Source of the DNA: a virus | Lineage: Duplodnaviria; Heunggongvirae; Uroviricota; Caudoviricetes | Length of the DNA stretch: 12,329 bases | Direction: 5' to 3' (one strand) | IMG/VR virus record: IMGVR_UViG_2737471824_000002 | In this document: piece by piece, positions 678 through 12,329 of the stretch | How positions within the stretch are numbered: the first letter of the stretch is position 1 | Layout: each line of letters opens with the position of its first letter | The notes under the pieces: generated by a model | What the model was told of the DNA's origin: nothing | Seen by the model: only the letters and a program-made list of their open reading frames with translations | Database searches by the model: none | Program-made: the position numbers and the translations under genes

Positions 678-685
678 GATTGCGT

Positions 686-702
686 CGGTTTGAAGAACAG
701 AC
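686..702 (+). promoter_or_regulatory. Cold-box-like element at the start of the cspB 5' UTR
   Basis: CGGTTTGAAGAACAGAC resembles the cspA cold box (…GGUUUGACGUACAGAC); a GCCGAAAGGC box also occurs at 816-825 just before the SD (TAAGGAA, 832-838). Confidence 0.45.
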
Positions 703-844
703 GATATACGAAGTAGTTTACTAAAGCAGTTCTCATTTCAGGTGTTATTCACTTATTCCTTCTTTGAGTCTCTCCAATTAAGTACGAAGTCGTTTCTGTT
801 ATGCAAACCATTTATGCCGAAAGGCTCAAGTTAAGGAATGTAGA

Positions 845-1060
845 ATGTCAAATAAAATGACTGGTTTAGTAAAATGGTTTAACGCTGATAAAGGTTTCGG
901 CTTTATTTCTCCTGTTGATGGTAGTAAAGATGTGTTTGTGCATTTTTCTGCGATTCAGAATGATAATTATCGAACCTTATTTGAAGGTCAAAAGGTTACC
1001 TTCTCTATAGAGAGTGGTGCTAAAGGTCCTGCAGCAGCAAATGTCATCATTACTGATTAA
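845..1060 (+). CDS. cspB: Cold shock protein CspB
   Basis: 71-aa [74 protein letters not shown] with RNP1/RNP2 cold-shock-domain motifs; matches CspB as I recall it. Confidence 0.95.
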
Positions 1061-1171
1061 AATTCATCGCTCGTCTGTATACGATAACGAAGAAGGCTGA
1101 TGCCTGAGTAGAGATACGGACAGAGTAGTGAATATTGGATCTCTTTAATAAAAAGTAAGGAGGTCCAATAC

Positions 1172-2345: not shown

Positions 2346-3369
<1,024 letters not shown>

Positions 3370-3580: not shown

Positions 3581-3731
3581 GGTGTTCTGGTTTGTTACAA
3601 ATTTATCTGAAGCAGTCATTGTTATAATTTTATTATTTGTACCTCTTGAGATTTCCTTGTTGGTTTTTCTCTCTGATATTTTTTTTCGGACCATTCTGCC
3701 CAAGGGCTAATTTCTTCAAAAGGTAATAATT

Positions 3732-3944
3732 ATGTCTAACAAAATGACTGGTTTAGTGAAATGGTTTAACCCTGAAAAAGGTTTTGGTTTCATCACGCCG
3801 AAAGATGGCAGCAAAGATGTGTTTGTCCATTTCTCAGCAATTCAGAGCAACGATTTCAAAACATTAACTGAGAATCAGGAAGTTGAATTTGGTATTGAGA
3901 ACGGACCTAAAGGTCCTGCCGCTGTTCATGTAGTGGCGCTTTGA
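3732..3944 (+). CDS. cspI: Cold shock protein CspI
   Basis: 70 aa [70 protein letters not shown]; matches CspI as I recall it. Confidence 0.95.
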
Positions 3945-3954
3945 GGTAGACAAT

Positions 3955-4143
3955 ATTACAAACCATATTCACTTTAGATGCCCGTGTTGTCATGGTTCCC
4001 AGTATAGAACATCATCTTTTGATGTTTCTGACATGAATCCTTTCGGGGCAAAATGTATCTTTTGTAAATCAATGATGATTACATTTGATAATATTTCACA
4101 ATACTTAAATGCCAGCCGTCTGTCGTTGGATTTAAAAAAGTGA
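3955..4143 (+). CDS. Small zinc-ribbon protein (CxCC…CxxC) with no canonical start codon; possible ATT initiation or a start-codon-mutated pseudogene
   Basis: Open frame from the stop at 3931-3933 to TGA 4141-4143, encoding …(I)TNHIHFRCPCCHGSQYRTSSFDVSDMNPFGAKCIFCKSMMITFDNISQYLNASRLSLDLKK. SD GAGGT at 3943-3947 with a 7-nt spacer to ATT at 3955. The first in-frame ATG (4033) lies after the first Cys cluster. A strong terminator follows at 4149-4171. Absent from the ORF track for lack of a canonical start. Confidence 0.45.
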   Translation: MTNHIHFRCPCCHGSQYRTSSFDVSDMNPFGAKCIFCKSMMITFDNISQYLNASRLSLDLKK

Positions 4144-4942: not shown

Positions 4943-5353
4943 TTAGCGTGGTAAGATCTGTGTAGTTTTCTGGATGCTTTCAGTAAATAGTAATGAATTA
5001 TCAAAGGTATAGTAATATCTTTTTTGTTCGTGGATATTTGTAACCCACCGAAAAACTCCTGCTTTAGCAAGGTTTCTTCTGTATTCCTGAAATGTGATCT
5101 CTCTGGATTTCAGCTTATTAGAGGTCGTTTCTATAAGATGCCTATCCTTTGAAAATTTGACAGACACAATGTTTTTTAGGCCCTTTAATAACACTGTATT
5201 ATCATTTTTTAATACAATATGAACATTCTCTGTGGCTAAATAGTAAATGTAATGTGAGACATTGTGACGTTTTAGCTCAGAATAAAACCATTGATAGTTT
5301 AAATCGTTTCGAACTTTATCAAATATTTGTTTAAAAATGACTACCTGATCCAT
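4943..5353 (-). CDS. ydfO: YdfO-like protein (DUF1398 family as I recall it), function unknown
   Basis: ORF 4943-5368; the second ATG (5353; [11 protein letters not shown]…, 136 aa) is preceded by GGAAGG at 7-nt spacing, the first ATG has no SD. Same position relative to gnsB as ydfO in K-12 Qin. Confidence 0.75.
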
Positions 5354-5410
5354 AGATAAACCTTCCATGTGATATGAGGGGGCGTAGTCTGCACGATTAT
5401 CTAAATTGCT

Positions 5411-5644
5411 TCAATCTGGTCTGACCTGTTTTCTGAGCAATTCAGTAATGTCACTCTTTTCTTTGTTTGCTTCAGAAGAAACTCTTTTTTCTGAGCACAG
5501 TCTCCGGCGGCAGGCTTCAATGACCCAGGCTGAGAAATTCCCGGACCCTTTTTGCTCAAGAGCGATGTTAATTTGTTCAATCATTTGGTTAGGAAAGCGG
5601 ATGTTGCGGGTTGTTGTTCTGCGGGTTCTGTTCTTCGTTGACAT
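5411..5644 (-). CDS. ynfO: YnfO-like small protein with a ribbon-helix-helix-like N-terminal pattern (DUF3950 family as I recall it)
   Basis: 77 aa MSTKNRTRRTTTRNIRFPNQMIEQINIALEQKGSGNFSAWVIEACRRRL…; basic N-terminus, then a beta-strand/helix/helix pattern reminiscent of Arc/CopG RHH folds. Lies 57 bp upstream of ydfO on the same strand. Confidence 0.6.
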   Translation of the reverse strand: MSTKNRTRRTTTRNIRFPNQMIEQINIALEQKGSGNFSAWVIEACRRRLCSEKRVSSEANKEKSDITELLRKQVRPD

Positions 5645-5843
5645 GAGGTTGCCCCGTATTCAGTGTCGCTGATTTGTATTGTCTGAAGTTGTTTTTACGT
5701 TAAGTTGATGCAGATCAATTAATATGATACCTGCGTCATAATTGATTATTTGACGTGGTTTGATGGCGTAGATGCACGTTGTGACATGCAGATGATAATT
5801 ATTATCATTTTGCGGGTCCTTTCCGGCGATCCGACAGGTTACG

Positions 5844-5855
5844 GGGCGGCGACCT
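5844..5855 (+). other. Lambda-type cosN (12-nt cohesive end GGGCGGCGACCT) within a cos region (cosQ upstream, cosB downstream to the Nu1 start)
   Basis: …ATCCGACAGGTTACG|GGGCGGCGACCTCGCGGGTTTTCGCTATTTATGAAAATTTTCCGGTTTAAGGC… is near-identical to the joined right and left ends of phage lambda as I recall them; it sits ~180 bp upstream of the Nu1-like gene. Confidence 0.85.
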
Positions 5856-6032
5856 CGCGGGTTTTCGCTATTTATGAAAATTTTCCGGTTTAAGGCATTT
5901 CCGTTCTTCTTCGTCGTAACTTAATGTTTTTATTTAAAATACCCCCTGAAAAGAAAGGAAACGACAGGTGCTGAAAACGAGCTTTTGGGCCTCTGTCGTT
6001 TCCTTTCTCTGTTTTTGGCCGTGGAATGAACA

Positions 6033-6578
6033 ATGGAAGTCAACAAAAAGCAGCTGGCTGACATTTTCGGTGCGAGTATCCGTACCATTCAGAACTGGCA
6101 GGAACAGGGAATGCCCGTTCTGCGAGGCGGTGGCAAGGGTAATGAGGTGCTTTATGACTCTGCCGCCGTTATAAGATGGTATGCCGAAAGGGATGCTGAA
6201 ATTGAGAACGAAAAGCTGCGCCGGGAAGTTGAAGAACTGCGGCAGGCCAGCGAGACAGATCTCCAGCCAGGGACTATTGAGTACGAACGCCATCGACTTA
6301 CGCGTGCGCAGGCCGACGCACAGGAGCTGAAAAATGCCAGAGACTCCGCTGAAGTGGTGGAAACCGCATTCTGTACTTTCGTGCTGTCGCGGATCGCAGG
6401 TGAAATTGCCAGTATTCTCGACGGGATCCCCCTGTCGGTGCAGCGGCGTTTTCCGGAACTGGAAAACCGACATGTTGATTTCCTGAAACGGGATATCATC
6501 AAAGCCATGAACAAAGCAGCCGCGCTGGATGAACTGATACCGGGGTTGCTGAGTGAATATATCGAACAGTCAGGTTAA
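6033..6578 (+). CDS. nohA: Terminase small subunit (lambda Nu1-like)
   Basis: 181 aa MEVNKKQLADIFGASIRTIQNWQEQGMPVLRGGGKGNEVLYDSAAVIRWYAERDAEIENEKLRREVEEL…, near-identical to lambda gpNu1 with its N-terminal winged-HTH; overlaps the start of the A-gene fragment as in lambda. Confidence 0.9.
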   Translation: MEVNKKQLADIFGASIRTIQNWQEQGMPVLRGGGKGNEVLYDSAAVIRWYAERDAEIENEKLRREVEELRQASETDLQPGTIEYERHRLTRAQADAQELKNARDSAEVVETAFCTFVLSRIAGEIASILDGIPLSVQRRFPELENRHVDFLKRDIIKAMNKAAALDELIPGLLSEYIEQSG

Positions 6579-6798
6579 CAGGCTGCGGCATTTTGTCCGC
6601 GCCGGGCTTCGCTCACTGTTCAGGCCGGAGCCACAGACCGCCGTTGAATGGGCGGATGCTAATTACTATCTCCCGAAAGAATCCGCATACCAGGAAGGGC
6701 GCTGGGAAACACTGCCCTTTCAGCGGGCCATCATGAATGCGATGGGCAGCGACTACATCCGTGAGGTGAATGTGGTGAAGTCTGCCCGTGTCGGTTAA
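6553..6798 (+). pseudogene. Terminase large subunit (lambda gpA-like), N-terminal 81-codon stump ending at a deletion junction
   Basis: [81 protein letters not shown] matches the first ~81 residues of lambda gpA; the frame then hits TAA (6796-6798) where tail-fibre sequence begins. The ATPase and nuclease domains are absent. Confidence 0.85.
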
Positions 6799-8446
6799 CA
6801 GCACTTCCGAGTCACTGGCGGCAACACCAAAAGCCGTTAAGGCCGCGTATGACCTGGCTAACGGGAAATACACCGCACAGGATGCAACGACAGCACAGAA
6901 AGGGATAATCCAGCTAAGCAGCGCGACCAACAGCACGTCTGAAACGCTTGCCGCGACACCAAAGGCAGTAAAAGCAGCCAATGACAATGCTGAGAAACGT
7001 CTGCAGAAAGATCAGAACGGTGCGGATATCCCTGGCAAAGATACCTTTACGAAAAATATTGGTGCCTGCCGTGCCTTCGGTGGGTCAGTAAGCACAACAA
7101 CAGGAAACTGGACGACTGCACAGTTTATCGAGTGGCTGGATTCTCAGGGAGCATTTAACCATCCATACTGGATGTGCAAGGGTTCCTGGTCTTATGGCAA
7201 TAATAAAATCATTACTGATACTGACTGCGGTAATATTCATCTCGCCGGAGCTGTCATTGAAGTAATGGGGATAAAGTCAGCGATGACGATCCGCATTACC
7301 ACACCGACCACCTCCACTGGTGGTGGAACAACTAACGCCCAGTTTACCTATATTAATCACGGAACAGATTATTCACCTGGCTGGCGAAGGGACTATAACT
7401 CCAGAAATAAGCCAACGGCATCAGAGATCGGGGCGTTACCGTCAGGTGGAACAGCAGTATCATCAGTTAATCTGGCTTCAAAAGGTCGGGTAACCGCGCT
7501 GACAGACAATACGCAGGGGGCAGCAGGTCTTGAGTTATACGAGGTGTATAACAACGGATATCCAACAGCGTATGGAAATATCATTCACCTGAAAGGGATG
7601 ACAGCCGTTGGCGAAGGTGAGTTACTCATCGGCTGGAGTGGTACAAGCGGTGCTCATGCTCCGGCATTTATTCGTTCACGACGGGATACGACCGACGCAA
7701 ACTGGTCGCCGTGGGCGCAGCTTTACACCTCGGCTCATCCTCCTGCAGAGTTTTATCCAGTCGGTGCACCAATCCCGTGGCCATCAGATACCGTTCCGTC
7801 TGGTTATGCCCTGATGCAGGGGCAGACTTTTGACAAATCTGCATACCCGAAACTTGCAGTTGCTTATCCGTCAGGCGTGATCCCTGATATGCGTGGCTGG
7901 ACGATTAAGGGCAAGCCCGCCAGTGGTCGGGCCGTATTATCTCAGGAACAGGACGGCATTAAATCGCACACCCACAGCGCCAGCGCATCCAGTACGGATT
8001 TGGGGACGAAAACCACATCGTCGTTTGATTACGGAACCAAATCCACGAATAACACCGGGGCGCATACCCATAGTATTAGCGGGACCGCAAATAGTGCCGG
8101 TGCGCACCAACACAAGAGTTCCGGTGCATTTGGTGGCACGAACACGAGCATTTTCCCTAATGGTTATACCGCGATTTCAAATCTAAGCGCGGGGATTATG
8201 AGCACAACAAGCGGTAGTGGCCAGACTCGTAATGCAGGGAAGACATCATCAGATGGTGCTCATACCCACTCGCTGTCCGGCACTGCTGCAAGCGCAGGCG
8301 CACATGCACATACTGTCGGTATTGGTGCTCATACGCACTCCGTTGCGATTGGTTCACATGGACACACCATCACCGTTAACGCTGCTGGTAACGCGGAAAA
8401 CACCGTCAAAAACATCGCATTTAACTATATTGTGAGGCTTGCATAA
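6788..8446 (+). pseudogene. stfQ: Side tail fibre protein (lambda Stf-like), N-terminally truncated; only a GTG pseudo-start
   Basis: The C-terminal ~230 aa match the lambda Stf C-terminus ([13 protein letters not shown]…[11 protein letters not shown]…[30 protein letters not shown]…[31 protein letters not shown]); the STSE(S/T)[11 protein letters not shown] motif occurs twice near the 5' end; the central part is unlike lambda. The N-terminal virion-attachment region is missing. Confidence 0.85.
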
Positions 8447-9021
8447 TGGCATTCAGAATGAGTGAACAACCACGGACCATAAAAATTTATAATCTGCTGG
8501 CCGGAACTAATGAATTTATTGGTGAAGGTGATGCATATATTCCGCCTCATACAGGTCTGCCAGCAAACAGTACCGATATTGCACCGCCAGATATTCCGGC
8601 TGGCTTCGTGGCTGTTTTCAACAGTGATGAGTCATCGTGGCATCTCGTTGAAGATCATCGGGGTAAAACGGTTTATGACGTGGCTTCCGGCGACGCGTTA
8701 TTTATTTCTGAACTCGGTCCGTTACCGGAAAATGTTACCTGGTTATCGCCGGAAGGGGAGTTTCAGAAGTGGAACGGCACAGCCTGGGTGAAGGATACGG
8801 AAGCAGAAAAACTGTTCCGGATCCGGGAGGCGGAAGAAACAAAAAACAACCTGATGCAGGTAGCCAGTGAGCATATTGCGCCGCTTCAGGATGCTGCAGA
8901 TCTGGAAATTGCAACGGAGGAAGAAATCTCGTTGCTGGAAGCATGGAAAAAGTATCGGGTATTGCTGAACCGTGTTGATACGTCAACTGCACAGGATATT
9001 GAATGGCCAGCACTGCCGTAG
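8446..9021 (+). CDS. tfaQ: Tail fibre assembly protein (Tfa)
   Basis: 191 aa [54 protein letters not shown]…; start overlaps the stf stop (TAATG at 8444-8448); Tfa-family chaperone adjacent to stf, as in lambda. Confidence 0.85.
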
Positions 9022-9709: not shown

Positions 9710-10025
9710 AGTGAGACTCTATACGAAATTGGTGTTCATATCATAATGCATCTCAGAAAATAATTATGATTATTTTTGTGCATATTTGTATGTACACGTT
9801 CGAAAATAAACGAATGCGTATGCAACCCCGTAATTTTGGTGAGACCCAAAATCGATTTTGTGAAAAATGGCTTTAACTCGGTTTGTTTTTCGAGTTCCGG
9901 GCGGACTCAAGGAAGAAGAATAGTGTTGCGTGTTATTTTAACCAGATTTCAAGTTGTTTGGTCGTGGAAAAGTGGAGCAAAATGTTGTTAAAGTGGAAAA
10001 ATGATAAAAAAGTAAGTTTATTATA

Positions 10026-10259
10026 TTACATTTTACCATTTAAATTTTGGTTGTCTTTAAGAACTGATATCGCTGTTTGTAATAATTCTTTGTTATCCAG
10101 CCATGATTTTTTCTTTATGTTTCCTTCAATGTAATCAAGCAATGTTCTGGTATTGATAGGTCTTCCCTGTTTTGCTACTTCCACTACAGCATCCCCTAGG
10201 ATAATTCTTACTTCAGGAAGCTGCGCAGGGAACCACTTTAGGGTGTCTTTTGATTTCAT
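10026..10259 (-). CDS. ydfK: YdfK/YnaE-like small protein (annotated as cold-shock protein in K-12 prophages, as I recall)
   Basis: ORF 10026-10292; the internal start at 10259 (MKSKDTLKWFPAQLPEVRIILGDAVVEVAKQGRPINTRTLLDYIEGNIKKKSWLDNKELLQTAISVLKDNQNLNGKM, 77 aa) is preceded by AAGGAA; a TATAAT -10 on the minus strand (10298-10303) would place the transcription start after the longer ORF's ATG. Confidence 0.75.
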   Translation of the reverse strand: MKSKDTLKWFPAQLPEVRIILGDAVVEVAKQGRPINTRTLLDYIEGNIKKKSWLDNKELLQTAISVLKDNQNLNGKM

Positions 10260-11045
10260 GAAGATATTCCTTAAAATATTATTGATTTTCATTGCGATAT
10301 TATATGTCTGATTCAGGATATGTTGACTTATACATCGGTTTTGTCTGGGTTATTGGATATGCCAATCCCTAATTTTATTAGGGCATGACTAAAAATGCTG
10401 AATATGATAAGGAGAGATGTGATTATCAGTATGCTGTTCATATAGCCTCGAATTAGTAATGTGTTATATATGATATAGTTGACAATTTTTATCTTGGGTG
10501 TTCTTAAAGTTCGTAGATAAACATTGTCGTTTCAGGTATACAGGAATGCTAACAGGTGGCAGCAAAAATCAGGCGGTTTATGGCGCAAGCTGAAGCGGCA
10601 ACTGCAAACTATCTTATGCAGAGACTCTACACGGATTGGGTTTAAAAGTATACATAGATAACAGTTTTTATCTGAAAAAGAAAAATATCAAGGTGATATA
10701 GCCTATATGCCTTTGATGCGGAGGAATGAATGTGATGGGAGTGATGTATCTGAATAGTTGAAAAACCGCAGACACGCCTTATGCAAGAACGTGCTGCGAT
10801 TGGCTGGTAAATTTTTCGATAGTGTGAGTATTGAATGATTTCCAGCCGTTCTTGATTTTACGCATAAATCCATGAAAAAACTACTTATCTGTTGGGGAGT
10901 TTTTTTGGGGCATATATGGGACAGAAATAGGCCCCAGATAGACACTGAGATCGAACTTAGGATGCTTTTTAAAAAAATGCAACTATCTGAAAAAACCTAG
11001 AAAACGCCAAGGAAACCACAGGATGGGAAAAAACACCTGTGAATT

Positions 11046-12329
11046 ATGGATTTCCAGTTATATTCGCTCGGCGCAGCGTTAGTGTTTCATGAAATATTTT
11101 TTCCTGAATCATCAACGGCAATGGCGTTAATTCTGGCAATGGGAACCTACGGTGCAGGTTATGTGGCGCGTATTGTCGGAGCATTTATTTTCGGCAAAAT
11201 GGGCGACAGAATAGGGCGTAAAAAAGTGCTCTTTATTACCATCACCATGATGGGGATCTGTACCACCTTAATTGGTGTGTTACCGACCTATGCACAGATT
11301 GGTGTTTTTGCACCCATCTTGCTGGTGACGTTGCGTATTATTCAGGGGTTGGGTGCAGGTGCGGAAATTTCCGGTGCCGGTACGATGCTGGCGGAATATG
11401 CGCCAAAAGGTAAGCGCGGAATTATCTCCTCATTTGTGGCTATGGGAACTAACTGCGGAACCTTGAGCGCAACGGCAATCTGGGCCTTTATGTTCTTCAT
11501 TCTCAGTAAAGAGGAACTGCTGGCGTGGGGATGGCGTATACCGTTCCTGGCGAGTGTTGTCGTGATGGTCTTTGCTATCTGGTTGCGTATGAATCTGAAA
11601 GAAAGCCCGGTCTTTGAGAAGGTTAACGACAGTAACCAACCGACAGCAAAACCTGCACCTGCTGGTAGCATGTTCCAGAGCAAATCCTTCTGGCTGGCAA
11701 CAGGGCTGCGTTTTGGTCAGGCGGGTAACTCCGGGTTAATTCAGACTTTCCTTGCAGGCTATTTAGTGCAGACGTTATTGTTTAACAAAGCAATTCCAAC
11801 AGATGCATTGATGATCAGTTCGATTCTCGGCTTTATGACCATTCCGTTCCTTGGTTGGTTATCCGATAAAATTGGTCGCCGGATCCCGTATATTATTATG
11901 AATACCTCCGCGATTGTGCTGGCATGGCCAATGCTTTCTATCATTGTAGATAAAAGCTATGCCCCGAGCACCATTATGGTTGCACTGATTGTGATTCATA
12001 ACTGTGCGGTGCTGGGATTATTTGCTCTGGAAAACATTACCATGGCAGAAATGTTCGGCTGTAAAAACCGCTTTACCCGGATGGCTATTTCTAAAGAAAT
12101 TGGTGGTCTTATCGCTTCCGGTTTTGGTCCTATCCTGGCGGGTATTTTCTGCACCATGACGGAATCCTGGTATCCGATCGCCATTATGATCATGGCATAT
12201 TCAGTGATTGGTTTAATCTCTGCGCTGAAAATGCCAGAGGTGAAAGACCGTGATTTAAGTGCGCTGGAAGACGCTGCGGAAGATCAACCGCGTGTTGTAA
12301 GAGCTGCGCAACCTTCCAGAAGTCTGTAA
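11046..12329 (+). pseudogene. ydfJ: MFS transporter (metabolite:H+ symporter family, YdfJ-like), N-terminally truncated at the prophage junction
   Basis: 427 aa ending at TAA at the window end; contains the MFS loop motif G-x3-D-R-x-G-R-K-K (GKMGDRIGRKKV) and multiple TMDs; it begins within the first TMD (MDFQLYSLGAALVFHEIFFP…) with an in-frame stop (TGA 11040-11042) directly upstream. K-12 ydfJ is interrupted by Qin. Confidence 0.75.

Follow-up and report, generated by a model that had tools for sequence, protein, structure and literature searches.

Phage modules, attachment-site core and truncated ydfJ gene at the right end of a Qin-type lambdoid prophage

Genes and non-coding features at the locus

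The DNA analysed here (the window; 12,329 nucleotides of the Caudoviricetes record IMGVR_UViG_2737471824_000002) carries in its last part two small phage genes, a non-coding spacer, the remnant of a third gene and a phage attachment arm, which are followed by the 3' part of the transporter gene ydfJ, hereafter 'ydfJ (table 1). In the initial annotation, the segment 10293−11048 had been described as approximately 750 bp of AT-rich non-coding DNA with no convincing open reading frame (ORF). The base composition was borne out, the G+C content being 37.2% in this segment, 47.0% in 'ydfJ and 43.6% over the window, although the segment is not richer in A+T than the phage accessory genes beside it (G+C 35.5% for ydfK and 34.2% for ynfT). 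That the segment is wholly non-coding did not hold, because it contains ynfT, the coding nature of which is indicated by its Pfam family (PF23676), by RefSeq and by the third-position substitutions described below; the absence of a convincing ORF stands for the remaining part, 10442−11043. The segment as a whole can be recognized as a series of phage modules of mosaic type, the last of which is the P arm of attP, and not as anonymous AT-rich DNA.

Table 1. Features of the window around the junction between phage and host DNA, with the evidence used for their assignment.
Feature	Position	Strand	Evidence
ydfK, cold-shock protein YdfK, last ordinary accessory gene	10026..10259	-	RefSeq, ORF list, substitution pattern
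ynfT, 37-aa small hydrophobic protein of the YnaM/YnfT family	10328..10441	-	Pfam, RefSeq, translation
Conserved non-coding phage spacer upstream of ynfT-ydfK	10442..10868	.	BLAST segment map, five-way alignment
Remnant of a DinI-family gene	10869..10913	-	Alignment with the full genes of Sakai Sp11, PhiR63_1 and PPompW; BLAST segments
Candidate arm-type integrase sites	10906..10936	.	TGGGGCATAT at 10906-10915 and inverted ATAGGCCCCA at 10927-10936; attP repeat search
attP P arm, phage DNA adjoining the core	10914..11043	.	Common to ydfJ prophages; joined directly to core and int-side arm in the genomes of four free phages
att core, 11 bp, TTATGGATTTC	11044..11054	.	Alignment of attR, attL, attB and attP
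'ydfJ, 3' 1284 nt of an MHS-family MFS transporter gene, residues 29-455	11046..12329	+	RefSeq pseudogene, protein alignment, Pfam

The ORF mechanically called for ydfK extends to an upstream ATG at 10292. When ydfK is compared with its counterpart in PhiR63_1, five of the six changes are found at third codon positions, and the same count (5/6) was obtained for the substitutions in ynfT. The product of the latter matches the PF23676 profile over its entire length (positions 1−37 of 37) with an E value of 6.5e-28 and a score of 96.2 bits for a cut-off of 27, as expected of a family member. Rac, mEp460 and HannyBb encode the same YnfT protein, and that of PhiR63_1 differs by one amino acid. A search of the literature under the name ynfT returned nothing; the gene appears in PMC6001520 as ynfQ, between ydfJ and ydfK, and as ynaM in Rac, with a peptide that was detected by chromosomal SPA tagging and was also positive in a ribosome-profiling screen.

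The spacer upstream of ynfT-ydfK belongs to a block that extends beyond Qin-type elements. By BLAST, PhiR63_1 shares positions 10250−10885 at 89.6% identity and Rac shares 10250−10803 at 97.8%, so that the ynaE(ydfK)-ynaM module of Rac closely resembles that of the window, with an identical small protein. Rac differs in that it sits at ttcA with a different att, and its homology extends to 10803, thus reaching neither the dinI scar nor the P arm. A promoter-like site is found on the minus strand at 10676−10647 (TTCAGA-18-TATACT), in a block that is almost invariant across five elements, and RNA polymerase holoenzyme peaks were obtained by genomic SELEX in the ydfI/ydfK interval (PMC5493296), which fall near 10600−10720 by a rough coordinate conversion. 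A promoter scan gave no more matches than were obtained with shuffled sequence. The promoter-like site and the SELEX peaks are leads, not proof, and the spacer probably carries the promoter of ynfT-ydfK.

It is improbable that 10442−11043 encodes instead an unannotated protein or a structured RNA, such as a retroregulator similar to lambda sib or a cspA-type leader of ydfK, even by taking into account that approximately 450 bp are conserved without insertions or deletions between Qin and PhiR63_1, that inverted and direct repeats are present at 10475−10528 and 10654−10673, and that cspA thermoregulators exist elsewhere in the same prophage. With respect to proteins, the 45-aa (plus strand) and 80-aa (minus strand) frames of this region show flat codon-position patterns, the former is interrupted by stop codons in mEp460 and PhiR63_1, and a Pfam search of 10442−11043 for hidden protein genes gave no matches, so that there is really no credible ORF in it. 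The divergence of the spacer (approx. 12%) is also non-coding in character and above that of the flanking genes. With respect to RNA, no Rfam family came near its threshold in 10000−11150: the match to CssrB, which might be quoted in favour of a structured RNA, reaches 25 bits, the gathering score being 76, and one to mir-263 is noise. The cspA thermoregulator family (RF01766) gave no match for ydfK in the same interval even at E ≤ 1; the cspB and cspI leaders present in the window do match it. Folding of a long ynfT-ydfK leader (z = −0.74) and of the P arm in the sense of int (minus strand; z = 0.12) was no better than that of shuffled sequences, and no sib-like or terminator structure was detected in the arm; a terminator scan yielded a sole terminator-like match, which is weak and no more than expected by chance. 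A 14-nt palindrome at 10481−10528 was considered as a conserved operator or hairpin and rejected, being broken without compensation in PhiR63_1.

Between the spacer and the P arm, the DinI-family remnant consists of the start codon (ATG, 10913−10911) and about seven codons (MPQKNSP...), which are joined to a degenerate version of the last eight or so codons of the gene. Approximately 200 bp of dinI coding sequence were deleted at approximately 10885−10896, and the same deletion is present in the free phage mEp460. The full gene is found at this position in Sakai Sp11, PhiR63_1 and PPompW (Pfam DinI, 1e-17 to 1e-19), and the BLAST segments 10780−10885 and 10893−11100 flank a 205-bp insert in Sp11. 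An intact ORF of about 80 residues, as in members of the DinI family (PF06183), is not present here, so that the feature is what a deletion has left and no longer a gene. The presence of a LexA box before this remnant was also considered and rejected, since none is seen in the alignment for the arm of Qin, mEp460 and Sp11; a clear CTGT-N8-ACAG precedes dinI in PhiR63_1 and PPompW.

The initial observation that an MFS frame begins abruptly in the first transmembrane (TM) helix, with a stop codon directly upstream, was confirmed. The sequence at the junction reads ...aaaaaacacctg TGA att ATG gat ttc cag..., with the TGA at 11040−11042 and the ATG at 11046−11048, and from the latter a 427-aa frame is open down to a TAA at 12327−12329, the final three bases of the window. 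When aligned with YdfJ of E. coli 536, which is intact (455 aa), the protein corresponds to residues 29−455 with one substitution, and it is recognized by the Pfam families MFS_1 (2.6e-37) and Sugar_tr (6e-25). The cut falls inside the hydrophobic N-terminal segment, between ...GWLGTALEF and MDFQLYSLGAALVF, and the first half of TM1 is missing. Thus, compared with a full-length MHS-family protein (455 residues, 12 TM helices including TM1), the MFS domains are present and residues 1−28 are absent. 'ydfJ has also been severed from its promoter, its ribosome-binding site and its first 28 codons, and no Shine-Dalgarno-like sequence was found within about 20 nt of the ATG at 11046. On the basis of the loss of half of TM1 and of the lack of a Shine-Dalgarno-like sequence near the ATG, the truncated product is presumably non-functional or not made. 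In three lineages the frame has remained open, but the substitutions in 'ydfJ are so few that the open frame cannot distinguish between recent integration and selection. With a low probability, 'ydfJ may be alive, being served by a transcript that starts in the P arm or reads through it and being translated from Met29, the ATG of which (11046) lies inside the att core. If so, a 427-aa transporter without half of TM1 would retain some function or a regulatory role, which would account for the open frame in several prophage-bearing lineages.

Position of the junction and the att core

In E. coli 536, an uninterrupted ydfJ gene encoding 455 residues is found directly after rspB. The alignment of the window with uninterrupted ydfJ, as proposed in the initial annotation, was carried out with this strain and four other lineages and set the beginning of host homology at 11044, or at 11040 if a 1-nt gap is introduced; the DNA to the left of the junction bears no relation to the 77 nt of ydfJ expected before it. 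The second comparison that had been proposed, namely with the other prophage end, was made with Qin of K-12 and led to a duplicated core, TTATGGATTTC, or TGAA(T)TTATGGATTTC with the gap. The core was defined across the attR of the window, the attL of K-12 and of AR_0067, the attB of four empty-site lineages and the attR of two other ydfJ prophages.

TTATGGATTTC is identical in the attR of the window, in the attL of K-12 (L003, 3026−3036), in the attP of free phages and in the attB of empty sites, where it occurs once in the intact ydfJ of four lineages; in E. coli 536 the core contains a single C/T variant. From this shared identity, strand exchange must occur within 11044−11054, with phage DNA on the left and host DNA on the right, which supports and narrows the attachment junction originally placed at about 11040−11050. 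The core spans codons 28−31 of ydfJ and includes the ATG at 11046−11048, which codes for Met29 of YdfJ. In the three-way alignment of attL, attB and attR, the flanks swap as expected for B-O-P' and P-O-B'.

The base preceding the block is A on the phage side (ctgtgaa/TTATGG) and T on the host side (cttgaat/TTATGG), so that with a 1-nt gap the similarity grows to 15 of 16 bp, in agreement with the overlap of 16−19 nt between the attL-side and attR-side half-matches of the intact junction (BLAST). According to the legend to S7 Fig of PMC8112680, which names K-12 among the occupied strains, related ydfJ prophages have an 18−19-bp att, with the attP sequenced from a PCR amplicon; the block of exact identity found here (11 bp, or 15/16 with the gap) is shorter than that reported value. 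The T missing in attR (TGAA-TTATGG, the host reading TGAATTTATGG) was considered as a sign of decay, and this was rejected because Qin, ARL09/232, Sakai Sp11 and the free phages all read the same phage-side sequence, that of the native attP. Likewise, the T of GGATTTC is not phage-derived, as it is also found in the empty sites of four lineages, the C of strain 536 being a lineage polymorphism.

In K-12, the sequence at the opposite end of Qin is ...gcgcttgaatTTATGGATTTCaagagtcatgcg.... It is this K-12 record, and not the genome from which the window derives, that supplied the attL end used here; in the source genome, the rspB-proximal end would be expected to read ...CTTGAATTTATGGATTTC followed by AAGAGTCATGCG and the int gene or pseudogene. 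No tRNA or tmRNA that could have served as the integration target is present in the window.

By considering that an ATG is indeed found at 11046 and that the 427-codon frame is intact and open in three lineages, it might be argued that there is no junction, that the transporter naturally starts at this ATG, as the initial annotation had envisaged among the possible outcomes, and that the AT-rich DNA is its own promoter or regulatory region. This is extremely unlikely. Among 5426 complete E. coli genomes, 2009 have the uninterrupted ydfJ junction, with a 455-aa gene and its first 28 codons directly after rspB, and most of the others carry the split junction. The DNA upstream of the ATG is found in free phages, and in Rac at another chromosomal locus, no Shine-Dalgarno-like sequence precedes the ATG within about 20 nt, and the gene is flagged as incomplete in RefSeq. 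No evidence speaks against the junction as such.

Reconstruction of attP, the P arm and candidate arm-type sites

A synthetic attP of 819 nt was built by joining positions 10600−11054 of the window to the attL arm of K-12 (L003, 3037−3400), and was searched against a phage collection. The entire sequence was found, uninterrupted and with 98.5−99.6% identity, in the genomes of four free phages (mEp460_ev081, HannyBb, Tritos and PhiR42_1). The gene order in the free phages is tail fibre, tfa, pin (a serine recombinase), a ydfK homologue, the attP region, int, xis and exo. The mEp460 locus is 99.3% identical to positions 10250−11057 of the window and thereafter runs into int, the product of which contains an arm-binding domain (PF12167, 5.6e-24) and the catalytic domain (PF00589), with an adjoining excisionase. 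Small ORFs called in HannyBb, one of which crosses the attP core, are not conserved. At the attL of K-12, an int pseudogene for a tyrosine recombinase ends 38 bp from the core; it is truncated, with IS2 adjoining, and intact genes for a 426-aa Int are found in AR_0067 and mEp460. As Qin's own integrase gene is a pseudogene, no activity is expected now.

The decay of Qin, with its truncated int, the adjoining IS2 and internal deletions such as the dinI scar, could also suggest that ydfJ was broken by an event that is not site-specific (IS-mediated deletion or illegitimate recombination) rather than by integrase exchange. The probability of such an event is close to nil when it is considered that each prophage end carries the 11-bp block, of which empty sites have one copy, that the two arms are contiguous exactly across this block in the four free phages, that at least three prophages with different cargo are inserted at the identical nucleotide position of ydfJ, and that ydfJ has lost no sequence between its attL and attR halves, which overlap by 16−19 nt. 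The core found at both ends and once in the empty site, the contiguous attP and the integrase gene adjoining the opposite core are those of an attR generated by site-specific exchange.

The P arm is common to ydfJ prophages of otherwise different cargo, the similarity beginning at 10893 in Sp11 (approx. 84% identity from there to the core) and at 10766 in ARL09/232. The TGA that closes the frame upstream of 'ydfJ is part of this phage sequence. The arm also contains TGGGGCATAT, 138 bp before the core, which has direct partner copies in the P' arm of the opposite prophage end (+70 and +81). All three exact copies of the TGGGGCA motif present in the 5.8-kb mEp460 locus are within 140 bp of the core, and 8 of 200 shuffles of this locus gave at least three copies anywhere in it. 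The offsets (−138, −114 inverted, +70 and +81) are conserved in seven att sites, including that of the divergent Sp11; the single copy of the motif in the window, taken by itself, is not above chance. The TGGGGCA repeats are proposed as candidate arm-type Int sites, and could possibly be those, not described so far, of the family of integrases with ydfJ as their target. A search of the literature found no description of the TGGGGCA repeat layout or of the dinI deletion shared by Qin and mEp460, both of which are minor points.

Integration in ydfJ, known systems and identity of the prophage

The organization of the locus makes the following course of events almost certain. A lambdoid phage similar to mEp460 integrated by exchange between its attP and an attB within TTATGGATTTC (11044−11054, codons 28−31 of ydfJ), the reaction being catalysed by a tyrosine integrase with an arm-binding domain that recombined the phage site with that inside ydfJ. 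The gene was split in such a way that its 5' 84 nt kept the promoter beside rspB, at the other prophage end and outside the window, and the promoterless 3' part (11046−12329) came to lie behind the phage P arm, which supplies the in-frame TGA. The ydfJ 5' stub fused to phage sequence has been reported as the 36-aa ynfP, MTIEKHERSTKDLVKAAVSGWLGTALEFMDFKSHAC (PMC6001520). The left side of the junction retains the order typical of this phage group, namely ydfK, ynfT, the non-coding spacer, the dinI scar and a P arm of approximately 130 bp, to which integrase and accessory proteins would bind in an active phage.

Several of these features resemble integration of the lambda type: the short core common to attP and attB, an int gene on the P' side, directed towards the core and adjoined by xis, the N-terminal arm-binding domain of the integrase, and the candidate arm sites at approximately −138/−114 and +70/+81. 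In lambda, the arm sites are arranged as P1/P2 and P'1−P'3, and the layout of the candidate sites described here is similar. In contrast to lambda, the target of the ydfJ phages is inside a protein-coding gene, which is not restored by the phage, and both the core and the TGGGGCA arm motif are unrelated to those of lambda, the arm sites being candidates that were derived here from sequence alone.

Closer relatives are the ydfJ prophages of STEC (Sakai Sp11; ‘PPydfJ’ of Nakamura et al. 2021, PMC8112680), which have the same insertion point and P arm. Their att and attP were defined experimentally, as stated in the figure legend of that work. They differ by the presence of an intact dinI and of nleG effector genes beside the arm, where Qin and mEp460 have pin, ydfK, ynfT and the deleted dinI.

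The closest match to the window is Qin itself. K-12 MG1655 and similar strains match positions 10000−11400 over the full length with 99.8−99.9% identity (megablast against the 5426 complete E. coli genomes), the MG1655 record differing at a few bases in 1401. In the RefSeq annotation of K-12, tfaQ, pinQ, ydfK and ynfT are followed by a ydfJ gene indicated as ‘missing N-terminus’, and pinQ and tfaQ likewise lie upstream of ydfK. The attR of Qin (Kim) in K-12 and the window thus have the same gene order, tfaQ-pinQ-ydfK-ynfT-'ydfJ, and the same 28-codon truncation of ydfJ, with no difference of substance between them. In the literature, Qin was described as being integrated at the 5' end of ydfJ, the gene ‘lacking 28 codons at the N terminal’ (PMC6379469). 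By taking into account all of these data, it is almost certain that Qin, a cryptic lambdoid prophage of K-12-like strains, has its right end, the attR side, at positions 10293−11054 of the window.

The essentials of the Qin/ydfJ junction were already published (PMC6379469 and, in the legend cited above, PMC8112680), so that the finding is correct but ordinary, and its importance goes little beyond correct annotation. For the latter, the 427-codon transporter ORF becomes a prophage-truncated pseudogene and not a full gene, the boundary between phage and host is placed to within an 11-bp core, and within DNA that had been labelled non-coding there is a genuine gene for a small protein, ynfT, as well as the scar left by the deletion of dinI. 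With respect to the site, ydfJ is occupied in approximately 60% of complete E. coli genomes by elements of varying cargo, effector genes included, which makes it a useful marker, already in the literature, for the comparative genomics of E. coli prophages.

Fate of the two ydfJ halves

Integration of Qin left an expressed addition on the attL side of the K-12 sequence, at the other end of the prophage: the 5' stub of ydfJ is fused there to phage P' arm sequence as the 36-aa ynfP (L003 ~2945-3055, outside the window), and ynfP is listed with the small proteins detected by SPA tagging (PMC6001520), from which it follows that the event made a new expressed mini-ORF. At attR, three lineages with a prophage at this site (K-12-like, ARL09/232 and Sakai) have all kept the frame of truncated ydfJ open, differing from one another at 0-2 amino acids, which may reflect either recent integration or residual selection.

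Repeats and a deletion near the att core

The offsets of the TGGGGCA repeats from the core are conserved at seven att sites, and the att region of the PPompW/Stx2 phage is also adjoined by tandem TGGGGCA, 11 bp apart (L015 1920, 1931, 2137). The repeats are candidate arm-type integrase sites. Two core-like sequences were also met in the phage DNA, namely a recurrence of GATTTCCAG (the core's right half together with the adjoining bases of host DNA, 11049-11057) 212 bp upstream, at 10837-10845, and an inverted near-copy of the core, AAATCCATGA, at 10866-10875; both are probably chance matches of 9-10 nt.

A deletion of ~200 bp, common to Qin and the free phage mEp460, takes out nearly the whole of a DinI-family gene that is complete at the corresponding position in Sakai Sp11, PhiR63_1 and PPompW. 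Upstream of dinI, PhiR63_1 and PPompW carry a clear LexA-box-like CTGT-N8-ACAG, which is absent from the arm type of Qin, mEp460 and Sp11.

Features of the right end of Qin and of the loci compared with it
Feature	Position	Strand	Remarks
TCAACA-16-TATAAT, sigma-70-like	10299-10326	-	facing ynfT and ydfK; 10/12 matches
TTCAGA-18-TATACT, sigma-70-like	10647-10676	-	facing ynfT and ydfK
20-nt direct repeat, ATAGTTGACAATTTTTATCT / ATAGATAACAGTTTTTATCT, with inverted partial copy between	10475-10494, 10515-10528, 10654-10673		
DinI-family gene remnant	10869-10913	-	deletion point ~10885-10896
TGGGGCA repeats, window side	10906-10915, 10927-10936		offsets from att core -138 and -114 (inverted)
TGGGGCA repeats, K-12 attL	L003 3096-3102, 3107-3113		offsets from att core +70 and +81
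Truncated ydfJ frames	window 11046-12329; L005 (ARL09/232) 6274-7557; L006 (Sakai) 5140-6423		

Putative control sites and RNA elements

Both direct copies of the 20-nt repeat upstream of ynfT-ydfK are nearly invariant across five phages and prophages, the inverted partial copy not being conserved in PhiR63_1; the copies may be protein-binding sites. The TCAACA-16-TATAAT site occupies the final ynfT codons and the spacer immediately downstream, and could be the source of a separate short-leader transcript for ydfK. SELEX peaks of several sigma factors map to the intergenic interval of the two sigma-70-like sites (PMC5493296).

A cspA-type thermoregulator leader is absent from ydfK, likewise annotated as a cold-shock protein. 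Two such leaders were found elsewhere in the window, at 684-1076 (+) and 3586-3971 (+) (158.8 and 112.8 bits), the prophage cold-shock genes downstream being presumably cspB and cspI. A full-length match to Rfam IS009 (220.9 bits versus a gathering score of 117) lies at 8789-8987 (+), within the tail-fibre assembly gene tfaQ.
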